From Escherichia coli (GTDB lineage: Bacteria > Pseudomonadota > Gammaproteobacteria > Enterobacterales > Enterobacteriaceae), in assembly GCF_030013595.1 (NCBI RefSeq), contig NZ_CP122769.1: 64,000 bases of DNA; one strand, 5' to 3'. Shown here piece after piece: positions 26,155-40,468 of this stretch. Position 1 is the first letter of the stretch. Every line of letters starts with the position of its first letter. A program made the translations under genes and the position numbers. The notes below the pieces were generated by a model, which saw only the letters and a list, made by a program, of their open reading frames with translations, ran no database searches and was not told the DNA's origin.

Positions 26155-27708
26155 TTAGTTTTCAACTAACTGAACGACGACCAGCCTGCCGCCTTCCTCC
26201 TTTGACAGAACAAACTGAGCGTTATTCGTCAGTTCAATTTTTTCCCCAATGGCAATCTGTCGTTTATCCGGTAATGACATAAGCCCATTTATGCCTTCAT
26301 TTACTAACCACCACTGATCGTTATGGAAAACAAAATACCCAACTCGTTTCCTTTGTGCATCGGTTGTGCGCTCATTTGGCGCAATGAGGCGATTCACATG
26401 CCACGCATAGATTGACTGCCCGCTCCACACCATCAACCGGTGGTCGTCAGGACGATAACTGCCTTCCTTTCGGGATGAATATAAATTTAGAACCGGTAAT
26501 TTACCCTTGTATGGCGTACCGCAGTAGGGACAAACCGGCTTTGTCTTACCTGAGAAAACGTACCATTTCTGTTCACACGCCTTGTTCTGGCAGGGCTGTA
26601 TCAGATCGACTGTTTTAACCAGGGCACTTTCCCACTCATCGGCGGTCGGGCGTTTATTGGCATCGTGTAAGCCATCAATAAAGGCGCGTTCAAACAAAGG
26701 CGTCAAATAAGGGCCCATGATGGTGTAAGGAATTTTCTCCGGGTCAGCCCAGGGCAGTGAAAAGGAGGATATCTGACTGACTTTGACTGCATTGCTTTTG
26801 TCTGTCGGATGTTCAATGAAGAGTGCCTTCTCACCCATAGATAAGGTCTCATCACGTACTTCATCCGACATGTCATGTATTTTTCCGCCACGTAGCGGAT
26901 GACGGAAGAACAGATACATGTAGATAAGCACCGACAGCGCATGACGGTCAGTAGAAATGCTTGGCAATACGCGGTTCGGATCCTCTTTGGAAAGATGGCT
27001 GGTTTTCACCACTTCCGGAGCGATAAAATCCGGGGTGCCCACGACGTCGGGAGGATACTTTCCAGGGACAACCAGGCCGTCTACGTCAATGATGCAGGCA
27101 TGTCCCATTTCTGGATCGATAAGCACGTTTTTATAGCTTAGATCGCTGTGACAGAGACCTGCCGCATGCATCCTTCTGACGGCTCTTGTTAGCAGCAGAC
27201 AGACCTTGAGATAGGTAAGCGTATTGCCTCGTTCACGTGGGTCGAGAAATTTATTCTGGTTGCTGGCGCTGGCAAACCATTTGCCTTCCTTTTCACGGCC
27301 TTTTATGCCAAGAAAATCATCGTTTTTAGAGCCGTATTTAAAGAAAAAGTAGCTTTTGTAGGTTGGAACCACGATGCCGATTTTATCCCCATGCTCAACA
27401 ACGTGGGTCGGCCAGCAAAACAGGTCCTTCCAGTATTCACCTCCGGACTGGCCAAAAATGTTTTGCCTGTAGCGTCCGGTGATCATATCAATCCGATCCC
27501 GGGCCTGCTCGTTCTGCGGTTTATGATAAAAAGCGACGACGTATGATTTATCAGGCGAGAAGTAAACATCCTTCATCGAGCCCGAACCAATTACCTCGTC
27601 AACATACTGGACTGTTTCGCCGTCCTTTGTTTTGCACGTAACAATATTTGCCATATTGATCACCGAAGAAGCGTATCCCTTACCACAACACCGCAATAGT
27701 GCGGTCAT
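26155..27708 (-). CDS. Hanks-type serine/threonine protein kinase with C-terminal zinc-ribbon
   Basis: Gly-rich loop VIGSGSMKDVYF, catalytic loop HSDLSYKNVLI, IDVDG (DFG-equivalent), GTPDFIAPEV (APE motif); CQNKACEQ...CPYCG zinc ribbon. Alternative start at 27654 (MANIVTCK). Confidence 0.8.
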   Translation of the reverse strand: MTALLRCCGKGYASSVINMANIVTCKTKDGETVQYVDEVIGSGSMKDVYFSPDKSYVVAFYHKPQNEQARDRIDMITGRYRQNIFGQSGGEYWKDLFCWPTHVVEHGDKIGIVVPTYKSYFFFKYGSKNDDFLGIKGREKEGKWFASASNQNKFLDPRERGNTLTYLKVCLLLTRAVRRMHAAGLCHSDLSYKNVLIDPEMGHACIIDVDGLVVPGKYPPDVVGTPDFIAPEVVKTSHLSKEDPNRVLPSISTDRHALSVLIYMYLFFRHPLRGGKIHDMSDEVRDETLSMGEKALFIEHPTDKSNAVKVSQISSFSLPWADPEKIPYTIMGPYLTPLFERAFIDGLHDANKRPTADEWESALVKTVDLIQPCQNKACEQKWYVFSGKTKPVCPYCGTPYKGKLPVLNLYSSRKEGSYRPDDHRLMVWSGQSIYAWHVNRLIAPNERTTDAQRKRVGYFVFHNDQWWLVNEGINGLMSLPDKRQIAIGEKIELTNNAQFVLSKEEGGRLVVVQLVEN

Positions 27709-29320
27709 CGTGGTTCCCTGTGGAGAAAAAGTTAAGCCAGTCGCCTAACCTCTCAGGCGCAATACTGGCGTCTGTAAGGACAGGGATGAGCTCATCAAGG
27801 AGACGGGTCCATTTTTCGTCACTGCGAAGCCCGTTATCTGTCTCAAACAGAGGGTCTGATACGCCATCTGTCATGAGGATCAAGTGAGATACATCATTCC
27901 ATTTACCCACGCTGATGCGGCCGCTAAACGAGGGGTCTGCGATAATGCTCTGGTCAAGAAAGCGGGTTTGTCCTGCGTATTCTCCGCTATCGGGATTTCC
28001 CAGTATCCTGACTTTACCGGAAGGGCTGTATGCACCTATCGCACCATCACCAAGCCAGAATGCAGCCGCAAACAGCTCGTTATCAGTTCGTAGCGCTACA
28101 GTTGCCAGTAGGGTTGTTGAATAGGATTTCACAGGTTGTTCTGCACAAATGGCTTCGTTCTGGATACTGTTGACCGCGAGCGTAGCTGCCTGTTTAAAAT
28201 GATGAAGCATGGCGTTTATGGTTGCCTGCTGATCGCTCCCTTCCCACGCCGTGATGTGCTGCTTTAGATGGACGCCTTTCAAACCACTGAGCTGATTGAA
28301 AAGGTAATCGCCAGCCGTTTGGACTGCAATCCGGGAGCCTTCCCGGGAATTTACCGCACTACCGGCCCCGTCTGCGACCAGCATGACAGACCATCCTGTT
28401 TCCTGGCAGTGGTTGATATAGAAGTCGTCATCTCTGAAGCTCCCGGCATGCTCATGAGATCGTCCCCGGCGACTGGCGGCAGCAATACGTATGTCACCCC
28501 TGACCAGGCCAGCAGCGTCCAGATGGGACTTAGGGTAGGAAGCGTCTGCTGGTGGCTCTACCACCTTCCACAGGCTTCTCGGATCGGGATTGACTATAAA
28601 AAGCTGTTTTGTTTCGCATTCGTCGTGCGAAGCGCATGACCAGAGTACTGAAAGCTCTATATCGCCGCTTTCGGTGGGTGTACCTGTCAGCAACTTATGC
28701 TCTTTGTCAAAGGTCAGGCCAATGTTCCTGGGAAAGACAACGTCCCTGACAGTAGCCTGCTGGCCCTCATCCAGAACTATAGCAACCGGCGAAGAGAAAC
28801 GTTCGCCTGCGCGGGCGTTGGGAATAACTATTTTAGCTCTCGGGGGAACGGCAGGTGGCACAGCTAATCCGGCCCGCTGCTGGCCTGTCGGTATCTGCCC
28901 GGGTTTTAATACCAGGGAAGACAGGTTTTCGTCTTCCCTCTGTGCTGGTTTATCAAATTCGTAATAAGGCATCAGCTTCCAGAACGGAGGATGAGGTTCA
29001 TTTTCTGGCAGGGGTTGCAGTAATGGTGTATCGGTAGCGTCAATGCCCGGGTTATCAGCATCACTTACGACCGTTTGTTGCTGATCGGAAAGGCTGGATG
29101 CTGACGAGGGGGCGATCTCTGCGTCGTTATAACCTTCGCTAACCCGCGCAGATAAACCCTGTGCAAGGCTCTCAATCCGCTCTTTAAGCCGCATAATCTC
29201 TTCAGTAAGGGAAGGGTCGTGCGATAGAAGAAAAAGCCGCTCACCTTCTACAGGGTGGCCCAGCTCAGACAGCACTAAGCGGATAATCTTCTCTTCAAGT
29301 AAAACATTTTGCGACATCAA
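27680..29320 (-). CDS. PP2C-family serine/threonine phosphatase with N-terminal extension
   Basis: PP2C-like motifs MLVADGAGSAVNS and LILMTDGVSDPL; stop overlaps kinase start region and start overlaps upstream vWA gene stop. Confidence 0.75.
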   Translation of the reverse strand: MMSQNVLLEEKIIRLVLSELGHPVEGERLFLLSHDPSLTEEIMRLKERIESLAQGLSARVSEGYNDAEIAPSSASSLSDQQQTVVSDADNPGIDATDTPLLQPLPENEPHPPFWKLMPYYEFDKPAQREDENLSSLVLKPGQIPTGQQRAGLAVPPAVPPRAKIVIPNARAGERFSSPVAIVLDEGQQATVRDVVFPRNIGLTFDKEHKLLTGTPTESGDIELSVLWSCASHDECETKQLFIVNPDPRSLWKVVEPPADASYPKSHLDAAGLVRGDIRIAAASRRGRSHEHAGSFRDDDFYINHCQETGWSVMLVADGAGSAVNSREGSRIAVQTAGDYLFNQLSGLKGVHLKQHITAWEGSDQQATINAMLHHFKQAATLAVNSIQNEAICAEQPVKSYSTTLLATVALRTDNELFAAAFWLGDGAIGAYSPSGKVRILGNPDSGEYAGQTRFLDQSIIADPSFSGRISVGKWNDVSHLILMTDGVSDPLFETDNGLRSDEKWTRLLDELIPVLTDASIAPERLGDWLNFFSTGNHDDRTIAVLW

Positions 29321-30357
29321 CCTCTCCCTCTGTTTACGTCGAAGTTAGTGTTTCCGCCATCATTGCTGAATGACAGACCTGTTTCACACCACGGGCAGAT
29401 CACGTCATCCGGGCCGTCAATGCACAGCAATTTTCCGCATGAGCACAGGGCAAACGCACTGGCATTACCGCAGTGAGGGCAACCCGGTACGCCATGCAGT
29501 TCGCTGGTGTTTACCTGCAAACCGGTAGCGGTGGCATCTGACCATGCAAAATAGTCCTCATCGATGGGATAGCATCCGGCAATATTAAAGCTGTTCAGGT
29601 TCAGGCTGAAATCGAGCCCGGAAATCCTTGCTGGTGGCCGTTCATACTTCATCAGATACGGACGACGGGTCTTGCTGCAACGGCCGGTAAGCGTAACGCA
29701 GTTTTCGTCGTACGCTTTTACTGGCTCGTCCTTGGCCAGCCGGACTATGTATTCAGTCTGGCTGAGCTCAGGTTGTTTGTCGTCTCCGACGCTGCGGCTG
29801 TGCGCCGTAACCGAGGCTGTGATCCATTTGATGAAGCGGGTAAAGTCCCCTTCCTGAGACTCGGTGAACAGCATGACATTCTCTGTCAGTTGCCGCAGGG
29901 TATTCAGGTCCGCTGACGGCCCCAGGCCAACGGCAATGAGATTCACTTTACTCGCGTAGTGATCCTTCCAGCGCTTCACTTCTGCGGTTGTGTCGTCAGT
30001 CGGACGTCCGTCGGTAAGGAGATACACGACGGGTTTCCAGTCGCCTTTAGCCTCATGAGTGGTTTTTCTGACCTGGGTATCAATTTGTACGGTCAGCTCA
30101 CGCAATGCGGCCCCAAGGCTCGTACCGCCGCCAACGGGAAGGCGGGGAGGGTAGAACGAGGCAATTTCGTGAAGAGGTACAATCGTACGGGCTACACCGG
30201 CAAATGCGATTACCGAAACCCAGGCTGTTTCAAGTGCGTGTGGATCCTTTCTTAAATCTCCGATGATCATTTGCAGACCATCAGTCATTTTTTTCAGGTT
30301 TTCACCAATCATGGACTCTGAACAGTCCAGGACAAAAAACACGGGAAGGCGTCTCAT
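29317..30357 (-). CDS. TerY-like vWA protein with C-terminal zinc ribbon (third TerY paralogue)
   Basis: Start set at MRRLPVFFVLDCSESM (RBS GAGGAAA); MIDAS motifs DCSES and YLLTDGRPTDD; C-terminal CPHCG...CSCG...CPWC. Confidence 0.75.
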   Translation of the reverse strand: MRRLPVFFVLDCSESMIGENLKKMTDGLQMIIGDLRKDPHALETAWVSVIAFAGVARTIVPLHEIASFYPPRLPVGGGTSLGAALRELTVQIDTQVRKTTHEAKGDWKPVVYLLTDGRPTDDTTAEVKRWKDHYASKVNLIAVGLGPSADLNTLRQLTENVMLFTESQEGDFTRFIKWITASVTAHSRSVGDDKQPELSQTEYIVRLAKDEPVKAYDENCVTLTGRCSKTRRPYLMKYERPPARISGLDFSLNLNSFNIAGCYPIDEDYFAWSDATATGLQVNTSELHGVPGCPHCGNASAFALCSCGKLLCIDGPDDVICPWCETGLSFSNDGGNTNFDVNRGRG

Positions 30358-30442
30358 AATTTTCCTCGTACGGCTGGTACGGCCAGCAGAAAACGTTGCT
30401 GTACAGAAAGGTGCTGCCCGGAAAGCAGCACCTTTCTGTCTG

Positions 30443-31084
30443 TCAGAGCACCAGCTGGATTTCTGGTGGAGGAGGGGGAAGGGTATCAGTTCCGTTATTG
30501 ATCCCCGCGCTTGTGCTGCCGGAAGACACGCTGGCCGATACCCATTTAAAGAAACCTGCAAACGCGGTTGAATCTAGCGTCTCCAGAGACACAACCTTAT
30601 CGGTGAGCTGTTTTAAGTGCTCATGGCCTGCTTTAGGACCAACGGCGCAGGCAATGATGGATCCGAATCCCCGGCCGCGAATCGCTTTTACCGCTTCACC
30701 GTACGCCAGGGCATCAGAAGGGGTTCCATCAGTCATCAGGAATACCAGAGGACGCCAGTCTCCTTTTGTATCACCATCTGAGCGACGTACATCCCGTTCA
30801 ACACACTGCATCAGACATTCAAGGGCAGCACCGGTGAACGTCCCGCCTGCGCTTGGCACAACGATGTCAGAAAACTGGAAGTCTTCCAGCGGCGTGAGAG
30901 GAATGAACTCACGCGCCTCATTGTCATAGGTGATAATGGAGATATGAACGCTTTCGAGGGCGTAGGGATCCTGGCGAAGAGCGCTAAGCATCGCCTGAAT
31001 TCCAACGTTAACGGAATGGATGGACTCACCGCGCATCGAGCCGGATGTGTCGATAACAAGGTAAACAGGCAGGCGGCGCATCAC
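30443..31084 (-). CDS. TerY-like vWA protein (second TerY paralogue)
   Basis: MMRRLPVYLVIDTSGSM and FLMTDGTPSD MIDAS motifs; 213 aa; start overlaps terX stop. Confidence 0.8.
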   Translation of the reverse strand: MMRRLPVYLVIDTSGSMRGESIHSVNVGIQAMLSALRQDPYALESVHISIITYDNEAREFIPLTPLEDFQFSDIVVPSAGGTFTGAALECLMQCVERDVRRSDGDTKGDWRPLVFLMTDGTPSDALAYGEAVKAIRGRGFGSIIACAVGPKAGHEHLKQLTDKVVSLETLDSTAFAGFFKWVSASVSSGSTSAGINNGTDTLPPPPPEIQLVL

Positions 31085-31722
31085 ATGTAATTCCTCAGGT
31101 GCGAGACAAACGAATCTGATTCTGAAGGCTCACCAATTGCCCTGAGTTTCCAGCCTGTAGCCTCGCGTATCAGCTCGGCAAAAACCATGGAGCGCTGGCT
31201 GGCGAAGGCGGGTCCGCCAGAAAGATCGAATCGTGCCATTTCAATATTACGGGCATCTACTGCCCGGATGAAGGCATTCTGAACTTTACCAAAGTGCTGC
31301 TGGAGCTTTTCACCATTGTAGATCTGAACGATGAACACAATTTTCTCGTACTGAGCGTCAAGGGAATTCAGGCGCACAATAATTTGCTCATCGTCACCAT
31401 CACCGGCTCCGGTTCGGTTATCGCCCGTCAGCCAGATATTTCCTGACTTATGGCGAAGGCTGTTGAAAAAGATGATATCGCCATTCACAAGCGTTGGTTT
31501 ACCATTTTCCACATTGCCGAGATCGGTCACCTTTCCGGCTGAATTACACAGGAAAGCGATCACATCAAGGTCGTATTCTTCTTCTTTTTTACCAAAGATC
31601 CCGCCGAGGAAACCTTTCTTTTCCTCATTAATATCCCAACCCAGGCCGATAGTAACGGACGAGAGATCGTATTCATTTTTTTTCAGGCTTACGCCCTGGC
31701 CTTTGCTCAGACTGACAGACAT
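31081..31722 (-). CDS. terX: TerD-family protein TerX
   Basis: TerD-domain signature GDNRTGAGDGDDE and N-terminal [13 protein letters not shown] typical of TerD/TerX proteins. Confidence 0.85.
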   Translation of the reverse strand: MSVSLSKGQGVSLKKNEYDLSSVTIGLGWDINEEKKGFLGGIFGKKEEEYDLDVIAFLCNSAGKVTDLGNVENGKPTLVNGDIIFFNSLRHKSGNIWLTGDNRTGAGDGDDEQIIVRLNSLDAQYEKIVFIVQIYNGEKLQQHFGKVQNAFIRAVDARNIEMARFDLSGGPAFASQRSMVFAELIREATGWKLRAIGEPSESDSFVSHLRNYM

Positions 31723-31744
31723 GACATCCCCTTAATTAATAAAA

Positions 31745-32383
31745 TTATAAGACCACGTTTACTTCTGGCGGCGGCGGTGGCAGGTCTTCAAGACCGATCA
31801 CTTCTTTTTTGCTGGACTCCACTTTCTGACTGCCTACCGAAATGCTCGCACTGACCCATTTAAAGAAAGCTTTAATCGTCGAACTGTCAGCTGTATCGAG
31901 CTGAACCACGATTTCAGTGATTTCTTTGAGGACGCTGGTATCGGCATCATGCCCGGCTGCACATGCCACAACAACGCCGGTTCTGGCCGCTTTAAAGTCA
32001 TTCAGGCCTTTACGCCAGTCATCATTCGGACTTCCATCCGTCATCAGGAATACAAGGGGACGCCAGTCACCTTTAGTGTCAGCCGTCGTTTTCTGTACTT
32101 CTTTGGCAATGGAGCTGGCCGTCAGGGTAAGCGCTGCGCCAAGAGAGGTGGTGCCGCTGGCTGTTAGTGCTGGCATCTGGAAACTCAGGAGGTCTGTCAG
32201 GGGGACTGCCTGTCGGGCTGAAGAATCAAAGGTGATCACTGACACGTAAGCCGTTTCGAGTGCATACGGATCCTGTTTCAGCGTGGTAAGCAGCGTCTGA
32301 ACGCCATTCTTAACCGCTTCGATAGGCTCTCCGTGCATAGAGCCGGACGTGTCGAGTAGCAGATATACGGGTAAGCGTCTCAA
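31745..32383 (-). CDS. terY: TerY vWA protein (first TerY paralogue), TTG start
   Basis: LRRLPVYLLLDTSGSM and FLMTDGSPND; no in-frame ATG at the conserved N-terminus, but TTG at 32383 is preceded by AAGGA at proper spacing. Listed ORF extends to 32464. Confidence 0.7.
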   Translation of the reverse strand: MRRLPVYLLLDTSGSMHGEPIEAVKNGVQTLLTTLKQDPYALETAYVSVITFDSSARQAVPLTDLLSFQMPALTASGTTSLGAALTLTASSIAKEVQKTTADTKGDWRPLVFLMTDGSPNDDWRKGLNDFKAARTGVVVACAAGHDADTSVLKEITEIVVQLDTADSSTIKAFFKWVSASISVGSQKVESSKKEVIGLEDLPPPPPEVNVVL

Positions 32384-32846
32384 ATGTAATTCCTTCTTAA
32401 GAGATCGGAAGAGGAGAGTAGTTTCAGGAAGAGGCCAGAGTTTGTAGATTTGATAAAACGGCACGACATCTGTCGGGTGGAGATTAAATACTCAGAAGCG
32501 GCATTAAAGAAATAAGTTAACCACCATTGAATTACCGACATGTGAATGGCCTCTTATCAGAGAAAAAAATTCAGACCGTACTGGAATATAAAATTTCTGA
32601 AAAAAACTCCGGCAAAAATAAACTTTCTTATGTATGAAAATCATCATACATCACAGATCTGCATGAATGGAGTGTAAATCGCCCAAAGATTGATGTGTAG
32701 CACAAGAGGATGTCAAGACACCAGGTTTTGTAGGCAGAAAGGCGCTGCTGACATTGCGGGAGGAGAATAGATCAAAACTCCGTCACGCAGATACAGAGGT
32801 GAAATATGACAAAACCGGGGTTTTCACCCCGGTCTGAGATTTAGCG

Positions 32847-33314
32847 TCAGGACTTTTTAGCGCTGTATTCTTTTATCAGTTCATCAACGGAGTGCAGAGC
32901 CAGCTTCTCTACCGCTTCACTTCGGGTCGAGCCACTCAGCGCAGCCAGACGGTCAATTTTTCTTAAAATCCGCATGCGTAGCGATAATGACACGGCTGTT
33001 TTTTTATCCTTATCGAGTACGACCTTCCCTGTGGACTCACCGGTTTTCAGTTCAGCATTCTGTGCGAGCGCTTCATTCATCCGGCGAAGGGTCTTTTTAT
33101 CCAGCTGGCCCGGATTAACGAGATGGTAGGAATGACCTGCCTTGCTGTATTTGATCTCCGCAGAATATGACTCGCGTAGCTCTTTGAGTGCCCGGGTTAA
33201 TGTCGGCTCTGAGCATTCCAGACTGGTTATAATGTCGGCAGCGGAAACGGGCTTGCCGGTGCCCAGTAAGTTGGCAAGCTTAAAAATCCGGGCCTGTCTG
33301 GTATTTAATTGCAT
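32847..33314 (-). CDS. terW: winged-helix regulator, TerW-like
   Basis: 155-aa product with HTH-like segment ADIITSLECSEPTLTRALKEL; position immediately upstream of terY/terX as in described ter loci; followed by hairpin CCGGGGTTTTCACCCCGG. Confidence 0.55.
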   Translation of the reverse strand: MQLNTRQARIFKLANLLGTGKPVSAADIITSLECSEPTLTRALKELRESYSAEIKYSKAGHSYHLVNPGQLDKKTLRRMNEALAQNAELKTGESTGKVVLDKDKKTAVSLSLRMRILRKIDRLAALSGSTRSEAVEKLALHSVDELIKEYSAKKS

Positions 33315-33331
33315 CGTAAGATTTAGCCTGC

Positions 33332-34540
33332 TTAAAGGGTTAGTGGTTCAATAGGCTGAAAAATGAAGGTACTGCTCATCTTTCGAATAACCGGGTGATC
33401 GCCTAACGCTTCAACCGGATCAATGTGTTCTAAGCCTGCAAAATTTACTGACGACATCTGGCTGCGACTGCATTTGCAGGACAGGATATACTCATCCTCC
33501 AGATAGCCGGTCCGCTTACTGACCCGTTGCGTAAAGCCTGACACAATCACGTTGTCGAACGGTAGCGTATGTAAAACGATACCGACCAGGCGGAACAAGC
33601 AGCCATGGACGTGGCGGGCATAGTTTTCGCGTACGGCTTTTTGCGTCATGGCTTTTTCCGTCAGCTCCGTGCCCCGGGCATTAACGCCGTAAATCTTATC
33701 AGGGAAATCTTCAATCTCAGCTAAATCAACATCCAGCAGGACTGCTGATAGCTCCGGCTTTACTTCAAATGCAACAAGCGTTTCACGCGGCCATTCAGTT
33801 TCTGCCAGCACACCCGCCAGGTATGATTCGAAAAACGCGGCGTCTGTCCGGAACTGCTGCCGGGCATCTGCCTGAGCCGTGGCGAGCCGTTTTTCATGTT
33901 CTTCAGCCTCAAACTTCCAGTTTGCATACTGTTCGGCCCAGGCCGTCCGTTGTTGCTGGTACCGGTGCTGTCGAAGGGTATTCTCACGCTCCACATCAAT
34001 CAGCTCCTGCTGCCACCGGCGAAGATTTTCGGCGTGGCGCTCAGCTTTAGCTGATTCCGATTCAAACCATTTACCCAGAAAACTAATGCCTTCGCTCTCG
34101 GCAGGCTTTTCCGGCAATGCAAGATAGTCTGGCTTTTCTGGACGCACCGGTGCCGGAACCTGAAAAGGCGACGTTCTGTTATGCAGGTATACTGCTTCCA
34201 GCTCTGCCCAGCTGATGCCTGTTTTAGGATCCGGCGTCAGCTCGTGAATATTACGGATTGCGGTCACCGCTGACATGAGATCAGCGGCTTCCTCCTCAAG
34301 CGCCTGTCTGAGCCCCGGGTCGGTAGCCGTCCGGTTCCCACCTCCGGAACGCGCGGCCCGATCAAGCCGGGTACGGTAACTCAGCCCGGTACCGGGCAAG
34401 CCCAGATTGGCATAGGTCCCCCGGCTTCCAAAAGAAACGGAAGCACCTCTCGGCCCGACACTCAGGCTCGGTGCACCGTTACTCAGGTTGAGGCGAACAC
34501 CAGGAATAATGTTGATCGACTTTCTGAATCTGAACCCCAT
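33332..34540 (-). CDS. DUF4236-like N-terminal domain protein, function unknown
   Basis: N-terminal Gly-rich motif MGFRFRKSINIIPGVRLNLSNGAPSLSVGPRGASVSFG; charged helical middle region. Confidence 0.5.
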   Translation of the reverse strand: MGFRFRKSINIIPGVRLNLSNGAPSLSVGPRGASVSFGSRGTYANLGLPGTGLSYRTRLDRAARSGGGNRTATDPGLRQALEEEAADLMSAVTAIRNIHELTPDPKTGISWAELEAVYLHNRTSPFQVPAPVRPEKPDYLALPEKPAESEGISFLGKWFESESAKAERHAENLRRWQQELIDVERENTLRQHRYQQQRTAWAEQYANWKFEAEEHEKRLATAQADARQQFRTDAAFFESYLAGVLAETEWPRETLVAFEVKPELSAVLLDVDLAEIEDFPDKIYGVNARGTELTEKAMTQKAVRENYARHVHGCLFRLVGIVLHTLPFDNVIVSGFTQRVSKRTGYLEDEYILSCKCSRSQMSSVNFAGLEHIDPVEALGDHPVIRKMSSTFIFQPIEPLTL

Positions 34541-34550
34541 TATGATTTCC

Positions 34551-35510
34551 TTAATGATGCTGGGTCACGGTAAGTAATCTGATTCCATCAGCGCTTTGCT
34601 CGTTCTGTAACCCATAAAAACGAGCTCTGTCCAGAATGCCAGCCGCCCAGCGGCGATGTGTGGCGGGTTCACACATTGCTCCCTGCGACTTAAACACGGC
34701 CTGGGTAGAGTTCAGGATCCGCAGAGCGTCAGAATGCTCACCCTGAGTGACCATCAGCGCGTTTTGAATGACCTCTATCTGACCCGGGTGAATGGCCGTT
34801 TTCCCAACAAGCCCATGTGCCATATCAAGAGCCAGCTCTCTGGCCATTACGGCATGATCGTCAATATGCTCACATACGGGCGCGGTCAGGGCAAAATCAC
34901 GCGGGCCGAAGACCGAAACGAGCATTTTGATGACGTAGCCCATCGGGCTGTCATACAGCGTCAGGTCCCGGGGACGGCGAAGCGACACAACGTTCATAAG
35001 ATCGTTGCCGCCGATTCGAAGCGCAATAATGCGGTCGTGGCAGGGATGTTCCACCAGACGGGTGGCCAGCTCCCGCATCTGAACCACGTCAAAGACGTCT
35101 TCTGTTTCCAGCGTTGGCATCATGCACAGGTGAGTCCCGCCCATGATATCCCACCATTCAGCTAACGAACTGAGGGTAAATTTCGGCAACACAAACCCGT
35201 CGACAGCGGAAAGATCATAATGCGCTTTTAACCATCTGCCCATTTCGGCATGCCGGGGGCGAATGAACACCAGAGGCCAGTCATTTTTACCCAGGCTATG
35301 CATGCTGTTACTGAGCTCGTGCAGCAGGTGCTCCAGATTTTTGAGGGCGACGGGGATGTCTGCTTCACTGACAGCATCCTCCAGGCAAATCACCAGAGAG
35401 CGCAAACCCGGGATTTTCCCGTGCAGGACGGCATCAGCAATATCTTCCCGTGTTGCAGGCATGTATAGCGTGGCTCCCAGATTCCAGGGAGAAAGACGAT
35501 TTTTCATCAA
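34551..35510 (-). CDS. HpcH/HpaI aldolase / citrate-lyase beta-subunit-like TIM-barrel enzyme
   Basis: 319-aa product with CitE/HpcH-like features (LVICLEDA, ...RIGGNDL...); start overlaps upstream stop. Family assignment by recollection, not search. Confidence 0.6.
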   Translation of the reverse strand: MMKNRLSPWNLGATLYMPATREDIADAVLHGKIPGLRSLVICLEDAVSEADIPVALKNLEHLLHELSNSMHSLGKNDWPLVFIRPRHAEMGRWLKAHYDLSAVDGFVLPKFTLSSLAEWWDIMGGTHLCMMPTLETEDVFDVVQMRELATRLVEHPCHDRIIALRIGGNDLMNVVSLRRPRDLTLYDSPMGYVIKMLVSVFGPRDFALTAPVCEHIDDHAVMARELALDMAHGLVGKTAIHPGQIEVIQNALMVTQGEHSDALRILNSTQAVFKSQGAMCEPATHRRWAAGILDRARFYGLQNEQSADGIRLLTVTQHH

Positions 35511-36586
35511 AGTACCTTCTTGATAATGGTTACAGCCCGATACTGGCCGAGGGTTCCCCCCATTTCTGTAACAACTATTCCCTTTTCACGAGCAAGCCCT
35601 ACAAGCAAGGCAACGTCCGGGTCGTCAATAGAACGCACAAATACATGGTCCGGTACCCGACGTAATACAGCCCGGGTTGCTTCAGCAATACCGGGTTTTA
35701 TACGATTGACGCTGTCCACTTTAAATTCATCGGCCAGGAACGCGATAACGTCGCGACTTGTCTGCCATAAGATCCGGGCTGACTCCGTATTCCAGCTCAG
35801 GGGAGCGAGGGATGACGGGGTTAACTTCTTACGGAAATGAGCGACGGTATCGACAAGCATCCGGCTGCATTCGAATTCACTGAGATGCTCGCAAACCATG
35901 CACCCGTGTAATCCTTCAGAGGACCACACTGACCGGGAGATCAGGCCTGACACCGGCGCACCCATGATGCCAAAAGGAATGAGCCAGTCATCATCACTGG
36001 CTGCAAGCCAGGAGCAGCCACAGGGATCGGCCAGGACAACCAGTCGCGGCTGCTCAGGATAGCCCGGGCGATCTTTCAGTGCGCGTACAAGCTCTCCGGT
36101 AATTGCGCCTTTACCTGTCCATCCGTCAACAAAGACAATACCGCTGGTACCATGCCGCTCTTCAATGACGTCGAGGGCTGCACCGTCAATTCCACGATCC
36201 CGGATAATGCTGATACCGTAATGCCATGAGGTTTTCCCCATGTCACGCAGGGCCTGGTGCAGCATAACGCCGAGCGGCACGCCAGCCCTGACAAGACTGG
36301 CCAGTACAATGGGCTCATCACCAAAGCGTTTGGCCAGAGCAATAGCGAGCTGTGTGACTTCTTTTGCAAGTCTCTCTGCGCCCCGATCCAGCGCCCGGTG
36401 AAACAAATCAAGATGCCATTGTGTTGGCGCTGGCTCCTGACTGAGCATGTCCGAATAATGTTTCTTCCCTGACTGAATCAGCTCTTCTTTTTGCTCAACC
36501 GGCGTCATCTCAATGACAACCGGCTTTAGCAGAAATTCCACGTCACCGGGCTGGTATGAGCCGGTAAATGTGTCATGTGGCTGCAT
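35507..36586 (-). CDS. conserved ter-associated protein with degenerate phosphoribosyltransferase-like motif
   Basis: Start set at ATG 36586 (MQPHDTFTG), one nt after the HAD gene stop; motif GIVFVDGWTGKGAITGEL resembles a PRTase PRPP loop. Listed ORF extends to 36652. Confidence 0.5.
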   Translation of the reverse strand: MQPHDTFTGSYQPGDVEFLLKPVVIEMTPVEQKEELIQSGKKHYSDMLSQEPAPTQWHLDLFHRALDRGAERLAKEVTQLAIALAKRFGDEPIVLASLVRAGVPLGVMLHQALRDMGKTSWHYGISIIRDRGIDGAALDVIEERHGTSGIVFVDGWTGKGAITGELVRALKDRPGYPEQPRLVVLADPCGCSWLAASDDDWLIPFGIMGAPVSGLISRSVWSSEGLHGCMVCEHLSEFECSRMLVDTVAHFRKKLTPSSLAPLSWNTESARILWQTSRDVIAFLADEFKVDSVNRIKPGIAEATRAVLRRVPDHVFVRSIDDPDVALLVGLAREKGIVVTEMGGTLGQYRAVTIIKKVL

Positions 36587-36587
36587 T

Positions 36588-37361
36588 TTAATTTTCTCCA
36601 AAAATTCGCTGTGAAATGGCATCTGCAAACTGACTCTGACGCGGGATGCCAAACCAGCTGCACAGTTTCATAAAACGATGATCGCTCAGGCTGTCGCCCA
36701 GGCCAATTACGGGGAAGACTCCGCGTTCAGCCCGAAGTTTTTCAAGCAGCCATCTGACTGCCAGCCCTTTCTCAACCGGGGTGGGAAGCCAGGCCACGTT
36801 ATTACTGTTGCGGTGGATGTAGAAGCCCTCGGTCGGAAACACCGTTTCTATCTCATCTGCAATGGCATTGAGCTCGTCAAGGCGGGTGCTGTCGCGGTGC
36901 TTCATCACCATATAAACCGCCGTTTCACAGTATTCGAAGTTCAGCCTTGCCCAGGCATTGATCCCTTTTGCGTCCATCATTTCAGTGATCAGACGCTGCA
37001 TCGATGTCAGCTTTTCCTGGTAGGGAGCCAGCTGGCCAAGCATATGGGCCTTCCACTCCTCGTCGGGTTTGCCTTCAGGCGTGAGAATGACGGCCCCGTG
37101 CGTGGTGATTGCCCAGGAGTGGAAAGGGATCCGGACGCGGCTGATTTCTTCAGTTCCCCGGGCGGTAACAGGTATGAGTTCAGCCTGCTCCAGGAGCCAG
37201 TCCACCAACATGGACTGTTCTTCCGTCATAAAGCTTCGTGGATTCAGGGTGCGATCAACGGCACCGGTACGGAATGGCTCCAGGGCCAGCTCGTCCACCA
37301 TTTTACGACGGGTCTGAAAGAGCGTGTCGTCAAGGTCGCTCAGAACAACGGGTTTATTCAT
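36588..37361 (-). CDS. HAD-superfamily hydrolase
   Basis: Start set at MNKPVVLSDLDDTLFQ (HAD motif I DxDxT) with RBS GGAGA; listed ORF has a 112-codon upstream extension overlapping the PRTase gene. Confidence 0.65.
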   Translation of the reverse strand: MNKPVVLSDLDDTLFQTRRKMVDELALEPFRTGAVDRTLNPRSFMTEEQSMLVDWLLEQAELIPVTARGTEEISRVRIPFHSWAITTHGAVILTPEGKPDEEWKAHMLGQLAPYQEKLTSMQRLITEMMDAKGINAWARLNFEYCETAVYMVMKHRDSTRLDELNAIADEIETVFPTEGFYIHRNSNNVAWLPTPVEKGLAVRWLLEKLRAERGVFPVIGLGDSLSDHRFMKLCSWFGIPRQSQFADAISQRIFGEN

Positions 37362-38502
37362 AGGTAACAATCTCCACGACGGGCGCAACCTCAGCCAGGG
37401 CTTTAAGAAGCTGCGTGTCAATACTTTCTGCGGGTGTCTCAGTACACACAAGAATACGGTCAAACTGCTGGTGGGCGACGTTATAGACAAAATTGGGGAT
37501 GCCCAGCCCGTAGTTATCCGTAAAGGAAATGGCGGACTCAATGGCATAACCAACGGCGATAGGGGAGCGGGTGGTCGAACCATAAAGTGCCTGTGCTCCG
37601 GCAGCTTCGAGCCGTTCAGCAAGCAGGAACGGCTCCCAGACGAATTCCCCGGTCCCGAGAACCAGAATACGTTCCCCCTTGCGGACGGAGACCTCATGGC
37701 CGAGATCGGCCGCAGGTGCGAGCATCCCCAGTCGACCCCAGGACTGTTTTCCCAGGATGTCCCATTCTCCGCGTGAAGTTACGTTGACTTTCGGCATGTC
37801 CGGGACAGGTGCATCAGGTAATGGGGTCCATCCCCACTGACCGCTTACAAGCGAAACCGAAGTGACGGGCAAGGATGTGCGCTCCGACAGGGCGTTGCTA
37901 CTCCAGTCGGTAAGCGTAACGGCGATAACCTGTTCAATATGTTGAAGCTTGCCGGTATTACGCAGGGCAGAAAGCAGGTTAATAAAGGTATTACCGGTGG
38001 TTGCCTCGTCATCAATCAAAACCAGCGTTCGTGCGTTGGTAACACGACGTCTTTTCTCTTCATCATCTGGCAGATAGATCAGATGATCGGTGGCGTGGCT
38101 GTGTTCTTCCTTGAACTCGCAAAGTAACGTGCCATCAACCGGGTGACGGGTAGAGGTCAGATAGACAGATTCACGATGCTGGTGGCGCACTTCATCAAAC
38201 ACACCGGCCCCTAGCCCAACGGCGGTTTCAGCCATACCGATAAAAAGTACGGGCCCTGTCAGCGTTGCGGGGAACTGGCTGGCAAGCTGTCTGTAGGCCT
38301 GCCGCATGACTGAGGGTGGCACGGGAATGTGCCTGCCGAGTACTTTGCTGACAAACAGAAAGGCGCGTTTCGGGTTACGTCTTTCAGCGATATCAAACAG
38401 GTCATCGAGCGAAACATCACCCTGGTCGCGGGTTACCTGTATCGTACCGCATGAGAGGGTACGGCGATAAATCATATCTTCGAGGGTATCAGACATAAAC
38501 AC
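37354..38502 (-). CDS. phosphoribosyltransferase (PRTase) family protein
   Basis: PRPP-binding motif RTLVLIDDEATTGNTF. Confidence 0.7.
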   Translation of the reverse strand: MFMSDTLEDMIYRRTLSCGTIQVTRDQGDVSLDDLFDIAERRNPKRAFLFVSKVLGRHIPVPPSVMRQAYRQLASQFPATLTGPVLFIGMAETAVGLGAGVFDEVRHQHRESVYLTSTRHPVDGTLLCEFKEEHSHATDHLIYLPDDEEKRRRVTNARTLVLIDDEATTGNTFINLLSALRNTGKLQHIEQVIAVTLTDWSSNALSERTSLPVTSVSLVSGQWGWTPLPDAPVPDMPKVNVTSRGEWDILGKQSWGRLGMLAPAADLGHEVSVRKGERILVLGTGEFVWEPFLLAERLEAAGAQALYGSTTRSPIAVGYAIESAISFTDNYGLGIPNFVYNVAHQQFDRILVCTETPAESIDTQLLKALAEVAPVVEIVTYE

Positions 38503-38505
38503 GCC

Positions 38506-39564
38506 TTAATTCAGATGGTTAGAGAGTGATTCCGGGTAAACGATGACATCTGTGATGGATCTCACTGCAACCGGAGAAAAGGTATTTCTGGCGCTCTGGA
38601 TCACCGCATCTTCAGACATCAGACCGAGCTTAAAGGCAGCAAACAACCCGGGAAGGTTCACCCCGCTGTGAAGGGTATAACCCACCCCGCCTGACGGACG
38701 CATGTTGGTTTCAAGCAGCACCGGGTTGCCATTCACATCGTTTCGCGTCTGAACATTCACCAGCCCGTCGGCCTTCATAACCCGGGCGCAGTCACAAGCC
38801 AGTTCCCAGGCGCTTCCTTCGTTTACCAGATACTGGATAGCCCCTTCCTTACGGCGTCCCACGGCTGCGAGTATTTCGCCCTTATCCGCGAGGATATCGA
38901 CGGAAAATTCCGGGCCTGGCAGGTACGGCATCAAAACAAGGGGTTTAAACGACTCAGAAGCCGATGCTGCTGCAATATACTGTTGCGGACTGACCAGACG
39001 ATGTTCGGGATGATTAAAGACGGCCATGGGCGAAGCACTGTCATCAAAGCGCCAGAATCCCATGCCATAGATACCCGTCACCGGCTTCACGCATACCGGG
39101 CTGTCCGAGAACGGCGGGGCCGCGAGGTGCGTCTTTAATTCTGCCAGCGTATTCACCCGCCAGGACGGTACGACCGGGAGCCCGTTTTGCTCCATAAACT
39201 GAGCAAAAGTAACTTTTTCGTCAGCCAGAGTTAACCAGTCGACGCCTGTTGCACCGGTAGTAAGGGTGGCTCCGGTCGATTCAATGGCTGAACGGTGTTC
39301 TTCAAACCACTGGCTGTTACGGCCAGTATGAATATGGTGGATGCCGTAGGTCTGAATGGTTTCCTGAATAAACTGAAGACGTTTTTGAGGATCTTCAGGT
39401 TCAGTCAAAGAATAATCGGCAACGGAAAGAATTTCATGTCTTTCGTTACGGTGGGAGGCAAATACGGTAATAGCAAAATTATTTTTTTGTGCAAATGATT
39501 TTACCCCCTGAATAATATCTCGCTGGGAGGACAAACCTTCCATAAACCAAATTTTCTTGTTCAT
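38506..39564 (-). CDS. ATP-grasp family enzyme
   Basis: 352-aa product with ATP-grasp-like organisation; first gene of the minus-strand operon, divergent from terZ. Family assignment by recollection of ter-linked clusters. Confidence 0.6.
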   Translation of the reverse strand: MNKKIWFMEGLSSQRDIIQGVKSFAQKNNFAITVFASHRNERHEILSVADYSLTEPEDPQKRLQFIQETIQTYGIHHIHTGRNSQWFEEHRSAIESTGATLTTGATGVDWLTLADEKVTFAQFMEQNGLPVVPSWRVNTLAELKTHLAAPPFSDSPVCVKPVTGIYGMGFWRFDDSASPMAVFNHPEHRLVSPQQYIAAASASESFKPLVLMPYLPGPEFSVDILADKGEILAAVGRRKEGAIQYLVNEGSAWELACDCARVMKADGLVNVQTRNDVNGNPVLLETNMRPSGGVGYTLHSGVNLPGLFAAFKLGLMSEDAVIQSARNTFSPVAVRSITDVIVYPESLSNHLN

Positions 39565-39793
39565 TTTTTTTAATTATCCGGAACGCCATGCAAATTTATG
39601 ATTGAGAAGTGAGTCTATGAGTGTCTACGCTACATGTCAATCATAATATGATTAATAACTTCAGTGGTTATGGAGTGCGTCAGTGTTTTTTTAGTACCTT
39701 ATAACGTATTGATATTTAAATTAAAAATAGAAAAATGAACACCATGAAAAGGATTTATTTTTGTGTTTTTGAAGAAAACTACCAAAATTTCCC

Positions 39794-39821
39794 TTGTCAG
39801 AGAACTTCATCATGATATGAT
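39794..39821 (+). promoter_or_regulatory. candidate sigma70 promoter for terZABCDE (TTGTCA - 16 bp - TATGAT)
   Basis: -35 TTGTCA (39794-39799) and -10 TATGAT (39816-39821) in the AT-rich 320-bp divergent intergenic region upstream of terZ. Confidence 0.35.
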
Positions 39822-39886
39822 TTTCTTCGTCAGTTACTAAATATACCTTTGATTGTCTCGGTCATTACCATTTTAAGGAATAAAAC

Positions 39887-40468
39887 ATGGTTTCATTAGT
39901 TAAGAACCAGACGGTATCACTCAGCAAAGAATCAGCTGCATTAAGCCAGCTTCATTTCGGTCTCGGTTGGGATCCGGTTAAGAAAAAAGGTCTTCTTGGA
40001 GGATTGTTTGGAGGCAACGACTCAATCGATCTCGATGCTGGCTGCGTATTAATGGACAGCACCGGTAAAACAATTGACACCATCTGGTTCCGCAAACTGG
40101 AATCCACCTGCGGCGCTGTTGTGCACAGTGGCGATAACCTGACCGGTGAGGGTGACGGTGACGATGAGGTGATTAAGGTCAACCTCTCCCGACTGCCTGC
40201 AAACGTTGAATACCTGGCGTTTACGGTAAACAGCTTCCGTGGTCAGTCGTTCAATGACGTCGAAAACGCGTTCTGCCGCGTTGTCGATCAAACCGGCAAA
40301 GAGCTGGCTCGCTACAAGCTGACTGAGCAGGGCTCACATACCGGGATCGTTATTTCTTCGCTGCGCCGTAATAACGGCAACTGGGACTTTACCGCCCTTG
40401 GCCATGCCTGTCGCGGCCGCACAATTGACGATATGCACTCCGATATCGTTTCAGCGGTTATTCGCTAA
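39887..40468 (+). CDS. terZ: TerD-family protein TerZ
   Basis: TerD signature [13 protein letters not shown]; first gene of terZABCDE. Confidence 0.9.
   Translation: MVSLVKNQTVSLSKESAALSQLHFGLGWDPVKKKGLLGGLFGGNDSIDLDAGCVLMDSTGKTIDTIWFRKLESTCGAVVHSGDNLTGEGDGDDEVIKVNLSRLPANVEYLAFTVNSFRGQSFNDVENAFCRVVDQTGKELARYKLTEQGSHTGIVISSLRRNNGNWDFTALGHACRGRTIDDMHSDIVSAVIR

Follow-up and report, generated by a model that had tools for sequence, protein, structure and literature searches.

A putative Ter-associated biosynthetic operon and its likely seven-gene transcript in the IncHI2-type ter island of Escherichia coli

What do the enzyme genes that lie back to back with terZABCDE make, and which of the genes transcribed along with them take part? 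These questions are raised here for a window of 64,000 nucleotides (nt) of Escherichia coli DNA (contig NZ_CP122769.1; "the window" means this whole stretch), in which six minus-strand genes between terW and terZ encode an ATP-grasp ligase, a phosphoribosyltransferase (PRTase), a HAD phosphatase, a second PRTase-like protein of the StiP family, a C-C bond lyase and a long protein with an N-terminal DUF4236 domain (DUF4236-long). Five such enzymes are known as the "Ter biosynthetic module", which goes back to Anantharaman, Iyer and Aravind (Mol Biosyst 2012) and was taken up again in PMC7824862 (2021). Phosphoribosyl transfer dependent on phosphoribosyl pyrophosphate (PRPP), a C-C bond step, ATP-dependent amide ligation and 5'-dephosphorylation were predicted in 2012 to yield together a small molecule that contains ribose and has the TerB/TerD/TerC complex as its target. 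An earlier note on this DNA had mentioned a proposed nucleoside-like, Ter-linked metabolite and had called its product unknown. The proposal indeed exists as the 2012 hypothesis, papers of 2021-2025 still cite it as unproven, and no product is named in the papers found up to 2025. Based on the evidence presented below, the locus is, on balance, probably a Ter-associated biosynthetic operon of the IncHI2-type ter island, transcribed as seven genes and acting broadly along the lines proposed in 2012.

With gene starts taken from the RefSeq annotation of an identical plasmid (Table 1), the distances from gene 1 to gene 6 are +9, -8, +1, -1 and +10 nt, including an 8-nt overlap of genes 2 and 3 and a 1-nt overlap of genes 4 and 5. 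With such spacing the tight coupling of the six genes is real. On the plus strand, terZ begins at 39887, which is 322 base pairs (bp) from the start of the ATP-grasp gene, and the arrangement is therefore divergent. Both the coupled minus-strand block at 33332-39564 and its transcription away from terZABCDE had been described in the earlier note, correctly in each case. The versions of the HAD gene (36588-37697, 369 amino acids, aa) and of the StiP gene (35507-36652, 381 aa) that were given by an open reading frame (ORF) finder are overlong; they are ORF-calling artefacts that reach 112 and 22 codons upstream of the true starts, and so into the preceding genes, and not alternative products.

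Positions 33000-40000 match several E. coli IncHI2-type plasmids with 100% identity, as does the left part of the window with Salmonella IncHI2 plasmids, and the ter island is also found on many Klebsiella, Salmonella and Enterobacter plasmids. Within E. coli the region is carried by 956 of 5,426 complete genomes, and of its places there 697 are chromosomal and 287 on plasmids. The order ATP-grasp, PRTase_2, HAD, StiP, lyase, DUF4236 was seen in nine other species loci, with 47-77% identity in the DUF4236 protein, and the gene order of the window is also kept in Serratia (L007) and Marinomonas (L008). This recurrence is far beyond chance. The enzyme genes adjoin TerD/TerB/TerC genes both in the window, as terZABCDE(F), and in other genera.

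The transcription unit most likely extends one gene further than had been proposed. terW starts 17 nt past the stop of the DUF4236 gene, and nine other species loci likewise have a TerW homologue after the DUF4236 gene, with a median gap of 8 nt. The only strong terminator-like structure of the region is found after terW, where a hairpin (32835-32812) folds as RNA at -20.4 kcal/mol (z = -4.39), a stability reached by 0 of 200 shuffles. Together, the short gap, the placement of the terminator and the linkage in other species suggest that the unit most likely comprises seven genes, from ATP-grasp to terW, and ends after terW. The six genes of the operon that the earlier note had placed between terW and terZ are all present, while terW is most likely its seventh gene rather than its outer boundary.

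TerW gives weak matches to the N-terminal helix-turn-helix (HTH) region of the PADLOC WYL model and to NCBIfam HTH regulators, and it has been reported as a regulator of the ter operon (Valkovicova 2011, cited by PMC12054061). As TerW is reported to have this role, two copies of the 13-bp palindrome ATCATRATATGAT are candidate TerW operators. These are the only sites of this palindrome in the window (0.34 expected), and both fall within the 322-bp divergent region, each overlapping a hexamer of a promoter candidate (Table 1). Sigma-70-like sites as such are no commoner in the region than in shuffles. A palindrome copy was present between terZ and the ATP-grasp gene in all nine Ter loci from other genera, and it lies approximately 85-130 nt upstream of the ATP-grasp gene in those loci whose gene calls fix the start; the terZ-side palindrome is kept with 1-2 mismatches in the six enterobacterial loci of the nine examined.

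Table 1. Genes and candidate regulatory features of the seven-gene unit and the adjoining divergent region (positions in the window).
Feature	Positions	Strand	Details
Gene 1, ATP-grasp ligase, Ter-specific family	38506-39564	minus	352 aa; RefSeq start
Gene 2, PRTase_2 with C-terminal TRSP	37354-38496	minus	380 aa; RefSeq start
Gene 3, HAD phosphatase, IIB-like, sugar-phosphate type	36588-37361	minus	257 aa; RefSeq start
Gene 4, StiP-type (PF11202) PRTase-fold protein with C-terminal PELOTA/L7Ae-like predicted RNA-binding domain	35507-36586	minus	359 aa
Gene 5, C-C bond lyase, HpcH/CitE-like, predicted TIM-barrel	34551-35507	minus	318 aa
Gene 6, DUF4236-long protein	33332-34540	minus	402 aa
Gene 7 (added in this analysis), terW, small HTH regulator	32847-33314	minus	RefSeq "tellurium resistance protein TerW"
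Intrinsic-terminator-like hairpin after terW	32812-32835	minus	10-bp stem with 6 G-C pairs, then U-rich tail
Sigma-70-like promoter candidate TTGACA-17-TAGACT	39612-39640	minus	ends 48 nt upstream of ATP-grasp start; 10/12 consensus
terZ-side promoter candidate	39794-39821		pattern match
13-bp palindrome copy 1, candidate operator, ATCATAATATGAT	39640-39652		overlaps -35 hexamer of enzyme-operon promoter candidate
13-bp palindrome copy 2, candidate operator, ATCATGATATGAT	39809-39821		overlaps -10 hexamer of terZ-side promoter candidate

Family assignments made in the earlier note were mostly borne out by profile hidden Markov models (HMMs). Gene 1 belongs to ATPgrasp_Ter (Pfam PF15632, E 2.7e-37; RefSeq "ATP-grasp domain-containing protein"), and its translation shows the Lys/Gly-rich loop VCVKPVTGIYGMG and LLETNMRPSGG, with the E-x-N motif. 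Gene 2 combines PRTase_2 (PF15609, E 1.5e-63) with TRSP (PF12500, E 5.1e-23) and carries a canonical PRPP loop that can be read in the translation, VLIDDEATTGNT. Gene 4 matches StiP (PF11202, E 4.9e-89) and PELOTA_1 (E 4.6e-25), and gene 6 matches DUF4236, as discussed below. Gene 5 is a member of C-C_Bond_Lyase (PF15617, E 9.3e-114) in which CLEDAV (LEDAV-like) and GGNDL (GxxDL-like) are readable. For gene 3 (RefSeq "HAD family hydrolase") the call stands on the intact motifs DLDDT (motif I) and GDSLSD (motif IV), while its HMM matches are all sub-threshold (NCBIfam HAD-SF-IIB-MPGP, E 4.5e-9, below cut-off; Pfam, weak, 0.009); its position matches that of the HAD/S6PP genes in the metagenomic contig L009. 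As the motifs of the HAD, PRTase_2, ATP-grasp and lyase proteins are all in place, these enzymes look catalytically competent. None of the six proteins received a defence-system assignment from PADLOC 2.0, where the single match was a marginal one to PRTase_III-A (E 8.5e-4, 16.7 bits).

Could these be enzymes of ordinary nucleotide salvage or central metabolism that merely adjoin ter? A weak likeness to carbamoyl-phosphate-synthase-like ATP-grasp proteins, to mannosyl-3-phosphoglycerate phosphatase and to citrate lyase beta might be taken to suggest so, the last of these extending in gene 5 to the acyl-CoA lyase beta chain. However, the carbamoyl-phosphate-synthase-like NCBIfam matches of gene 1 lie far under cut-off, gene 5 reaches RipC with 34 bits (E 1.7e-8) against a cut-off of 375 bits and the citrate lyase structure 3qll with E 0.0036, and all matches to NCBIfam equivalogs of primary metabolism are many-fold (5-20 times) below their curated cut-offs. 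The best Pfam matches are instead Ter-specific families. A sequence search against all PDB chains with five of the six proteins (HAD not searched) returned no significant relative, the best E being 0.0036. In addition, these are plasmid or island genes that occur in only 956 of the 5,426 E. coli genomes, always beside TerD/TerB/TerC genes. Ordinary metabolism is thus scarcely credible as an explanation. With NCBIfam scores far under cut-offs and no significant relative of solved structure among the five proteins searched, nothing in the HMM searches reassigns the enzymes to primary metabolism, and the Ter-linked pathway that the earlier note had envisaged keeps its place.

Gene 4 is the member of the module for which published names and evidence diverge. 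RefSeq lists it as "cysteine protease StiP family protein" and Pfam as "Tellurite-like stress resistance cysteine protease StiP", a name that goes back to Acinetobacter baylyi work cited in PMC11994780. If these names were right, the cluster would mix proteolysis with metabolism. A search of 1.84 billion representative proteins yielded 888 StiP homologues, whereas a word-indexed search returned relatives above 72% identity only. An alignment of 50 of the 888, with 33-54% identity, contains no Cys column that is invariant or conserved at 90% or more, the best being C229 (Cys in 37 of 50, otherwise A, T or V). The invariant motifs are SLxRAGxPxG and VDGWTGKG, which, judged from the sequence, correspond to the two phosphate-binding loops of PRTases. 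An AlphaFold model (predicted local distance difference test, pLDDT, 95.9; predicted template modelling score 0.94) has a PRTase core fold and structurally matches PRTases together with the PRPP-dependent ribofuranosyltransferases 7shg and Bcs3-CriT; no known peptidase fold was found for it. Frequent fusion of StiP to PRTase_2, HAD and lyase enzymes (see below) also speaks against a protease, which leaves that function very unlikely. The designation as a cysteine protease is unsupported by an invariant Cys or a peptidase fold, and "second PRTase-like protein", as the earlier note had it, is the better description.

Compared with PyrR and type I purine/pyrimidine PRTases, predicted RNA binding resides in StiP in a separate PELOTA/L7Ae-like domain, and the loop VDGWTGKG does not have the canonical acidic pair. 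By analogy with PyrR, StiP may be regulatory rather than catalytic. No RNA family of Rfam was detected between 32000 and 47000, so that neither a riboswitch nor any other known RNA is at hand in the region as a partner for the PELOTA domain.

Gene fusions connect StiP to its neighbours. Among the best 150 StiP representatives, 31 are at least 480 residues long, and their extra parts match the neighbours of StiP in the window. PRTase_2/TRSP-StiP fusions are the most frequent (20), followed by HAD-StiP fusions (seven), one ATP-grasp-PRTase_2-StiP fusion (P0340, 1,055 aa) and one StiP-lyase fusion (P0382); the fusion proteins are P0259, P0328, P0340, P0382 and 25 others. Errors of gene calling in metagenomes could account for some of them. 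Their number and consistency nevertheless argue that the five enzymes act as one functional unit. The DUF4236 protein was found in none of the fusions in this set.

The structural matches of StiP open an alternative to a nucleoside-like product. In the Bcs3 protein of Haemophilus influenzae, the CriT PRTase-fold enzyme transfers ribofuranose-5-phosphate from PRPP and the HAD enzyme CrpP removes the 5-phosphate (PMC10299916). The PRTase-fold domains of CriT/CrpP (8a0c) and of a Thermobacillus composti ribofuranosyltransferase (7shg) are among the best structural matches of StiP, at approximately 10% sequence identity. Since CriT/CrpP ribofuranosylates an acceptor that is not a base, the product of the module need not be a nucleoside, and the PELOTA domain could direct StiP to RNA. 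The PRTase-fold enzymes might accordingly ribofuranosylate a non-base acceptor, be it a small molecule that is modified at a hydroxyl or amine or an RNA bound through PELOTA, with the HAD enzyme then removing the 5-phosphate. Both the 7shg and the Bcs3-CriT enzymes pair with a HAD phosphatase (PMC10299916), the seven HAD-StiP fusions combine the same two domain types, and the PRPP loop of StiP is non-canonical, all of which would fit. Yet 8a0c and 7shg act on capsule or O-antigen polymers within glycan clusters, while the window contains neither glycan-assembly nor export genes and adds PELOTA and three further enzymes; moreover, the PRPP loop of PRTase_2 is fully canonical and of nucleotide type, and no RNA element from Rfam lies in the region. 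This form of ribofuranosylation is therefore regarded as unlikely, and equally so its consequence, namely that the output would be a modified macromolecule or glycoside without any nucleoside signal. The nucleoside-like ribofuranoside of the 2012 model remains the preferred product.

The sixth gene is of a different kind. Pfam DUF4236 (PF14020, E 2.4e-21) covers residues 3-56 only, and for the remaining approximately 345 residues no Pfam, NCBIfam or PDB match was obtained. In its structural model (pLDDT 87) the beta-rich DUF4236 domain (residues 1-58) is followed by a helical region (75-247), which includes a helix of approximately 70 residues, and by a C-terminal alpha/beta domain (250-402) with the conserved motifs WPRET, DVDLPEIED, YARHVHG and SGFTQR. 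No enzyme-like fold was found for this protein. A word-indexed search gave 672 DUF4236-long homologues, and Foldseek gave 912 structural neighbours in AFDB50, of which those listed are unannotated DUF4236-long members from many phyla. Two AFDB entries from E. coli that are 100% identical over the aligned regions, A0A6G9I2M0 and A0A343J046, are named "Restriction endonuclease", a name with no support in fold or motifs. In PHROGs the N-terminal DUF4236 domain occurs in nine phage protein families, and nothing else of the six proteins was matched there.

The contexts of the family were surveyed with one genome per species, which gave 80 DUF4236-long loci; as the neighbour queries were the proteins of the window and of three further loci, divergent integrases and unknown families are under-detected in the roughly 60 loci without Ter genes. 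Ter linkage was seen in 12 of the 80 loci, including Endozoicomonas, a Sphingopyxis metagenome-assembled genome (MAG) and a Klebsiella MAG with different arrangements. The position between lyase and terW is held in Escherichia sp., Buttiauxella, Klebsiella, Rahnella, Rheinheimera, Shewanella, Marinomonas, Lelliottia, an Aeromonadaceae MAG and Serratia (L007). Divergent Ter-linked members (L009, L010, L092, L039 and L002; 31-44% identity) occupy at least five other arrangements. In L009 the gene precedes PRTase_2 in a cluster without ATP-grasp and lyase, in L010 it follows PgpA and two unknown genes, in L092 it lies between ATP-grasp and PRTase_2, in L039 it comes after TerD, and in L002 (Psychromonas) it is placed between TerD genes with no enzymes. 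In L062 a TerY-P triad lies downstream of the gene, and TerD and TerB come after the triad.

Most members at or below 36% identity have no recurrent partner. Homologues with 54-55% identity occur in Pantoea endophytica (L017), Chimaeribacter coloradensis (L018) and Pantoea sp. RIT-PI-b (L023), where no Ter or module genes were detected within 10 kb, unlike in others of similar identity. Distant homologues with 33-40% identity lie in L011 (8416-16830), L013 (9189-15318), L006 (4430-11362) and L012 (9213-15023). The gene is directly 3' of a tyrosine integrase in L011, L012 and L013, adjoins His-Xaa-Ser (Hxs) radical-SAM cassettes in L011, L013 and L006, has an SNase nuclease beside it in L013 and L006, and is found beside a vWA-PP2C-kinase triad in L012.

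Such a distribution could mean that the DUF4236 gene is a hitch-hiking gene of mobile elements that reached its place in the operon by historical accident. The modest share of Ter-linked loci, the three close homologues from Pantoea and Chimaeribacter with no Ter gene within 10 kb, the neighbourhoods of distant members (integrases, radical-SAM cassettes, SNase and vWA-PP2C-kinase triads), the nine phage families with the N-terminal domain and the missing fusion to any module enzyme among the best 150 StiP representatives would all be expected of a hitch-hiker. Against this, the coupled position between lyase and terW is kept across nine surveyed loci and Serratia L007, divergent members are Ter-linked in at least five other arrangements, and L062 again places the gene upstream of a TerY-P triad, TerD and TerB. 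Hitch-hiking is therefore a real but doubtful possibility. In our reading, DUF4236-long belongs to mobile islands as an accessory protein and was recruited to Ter systems repeatedly. Since its association with TerD-type genes is no looser than that with the enzymes, it is probably a scaffold or adaptor and not a biosynthetic step. The earlier note, which had included the gene in the biosynthetic operon, was right about its position and coupling, while the protein, for which no enzyme-like fold was found, does not look biosynthetic.

The order and coupling of the genes, the families to which they belong, the PRTase fold of StiP, the fusions and the spread of the DUF4236 family were observed directly, while all of the chemistry of the module is our inference. 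In the proposed mechanism, the PRTase-fold enzymes would move ribose-5-phosphate from PRPP to an acceptor, as their fold and the intact PRPP loop of PRTase_2 suggest. The C-C lyase and the ATP-grasp ligase would make or alter this acceptor, or else its side chain, by means of a C-C bond step and an amide bond, roles that are deduced from family membership alone. By analogy with CriT/CrpP, the HAD phosphatase would then strip the 5'-phosphate to leave a ribofuranoside, the "nucleoside-like" product, and this product would, as in the published hypothesis, act on the TerB/TerD/TerC membrane complex of the divergent terZABCDE operon. TerW, made from the same transcript, would probably bind both palindromes and thereby couple the expression of the two operons. 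DUF4236-long would not be a catalyst of the pathway, and more likely serves as a scaffold or adaptor recruited to Ter systems.

Several points weigh against this mechanism. None of the papers found assigns a product, a substrate or an activity to one of the five enzymes. The PRPP loop of StiP has one Asp followed by Gly, without the second canonical acidic residue, and the HAD assignment combines sub-threshold HMM matches with motifs. The DUF4236-long family is mostly without Ter linkage, and promoters, terminator and operator were called by pattern only. Finally, the terZ-F genes alone give tellurite resistance (PMC8115787), so that the module is dispensable for this phenotype and its role must lie elsewhere in Ter function. 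Perhaps StiP-PELOTA marks RNA or another non-base acceptor by PRPP-dependent ribofuranosylation of the CriT/CrpP type under phage or metal stress, with DUF4236-long as a general adaptor or sensor that serves several kinds of mobile island cassette (Ter, the TerY-P triad and His-Xaa-Ser radical-SAM systems); this combination is unlikely. The seven-gene biosynthetic operon, with the mechanism as outlined, is held to be the probable reading.

Further genes of Ter islands are located around the module. Beyond terW, about 460 nt away, a minus-strand set at 26155-32383 encodes a vWA protein (TerY), a TerD-family protein (TerX), a second vWA protein, TerY-C, a PP2C phosphatase and a helix-hairpin-helix protein whose counterparts in other loci are Ser/Thr kinases. 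This set is a TerY-P-type phosphorylation triad. The TerY-P triad (vWA, PP2C phosphatase and Ser/Thr kinase) is reportedly the defence system described by Gao et al. in 2020. It shares the island with the operon, just beyond terW, and in both L012 and L062 a DUF4236-long homologue is found immediately upstream of such a triad, but it is a phosphorylation switch rather than a biosynthetic pathway and is outside the six genes. Two variant Ter clusters contain additional genes within the module, a Na/Ca-exchanger-family membrane protein beside the DUF4236 gene in L009 (2533-3615) and PgpA (phosphatidylglycerophosphatase A) after the lyase in L010 (7652-8152). These genes hint at membrane or lipid links of the module.

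The module, its families (each with a Ter-named Pfam entry) and the hypothesis are already in the literature, and the locus is the classical IncHI2/E. coli ter island. Compared with the 2012 description as restated in later papers, the window has the same five families (ATPgrasp_Ter, PRTase_2-TRSP, HAD, PRTase_1/StiP-PELOTA and TIM-barrel C-C lyase) and the same divergent position by terZABCDE, in the same island in which the ter genes were defined. There is no substantive difference from that description, and the window is no new member or variant of the module; terW as a probable seventh gene, DUF4236-long as a non-enzymatic passenger or adaptor and the palindromes are added here to those restatements. 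Relative to them, this analysis contributes a unit of seven genes, arguments against naming StiP a protease, a census of fusions, a survey of where DUF4236-long occurs, and the conserved palindromes. The outcome is a cleaner transcription unit, a corrected StiP annotation, a candidate operator and evidence that the sixth gene is accessory and not an enzyme.

The ter island, which is present in about one in six complete E. coli genomes, has been linked in Klebsiella to infection and to fitness in the gut (PMC8115787), and it has an effect on phage resistance (PMC12054061). Literature searches turned up neither a solved product of the module nor a mechanism by which it would act in defence, and the question of its product dates from 2012. 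Identifying this product would show how TerB/TerD/TerC is controlled and might reveal a new ribose-based signal.

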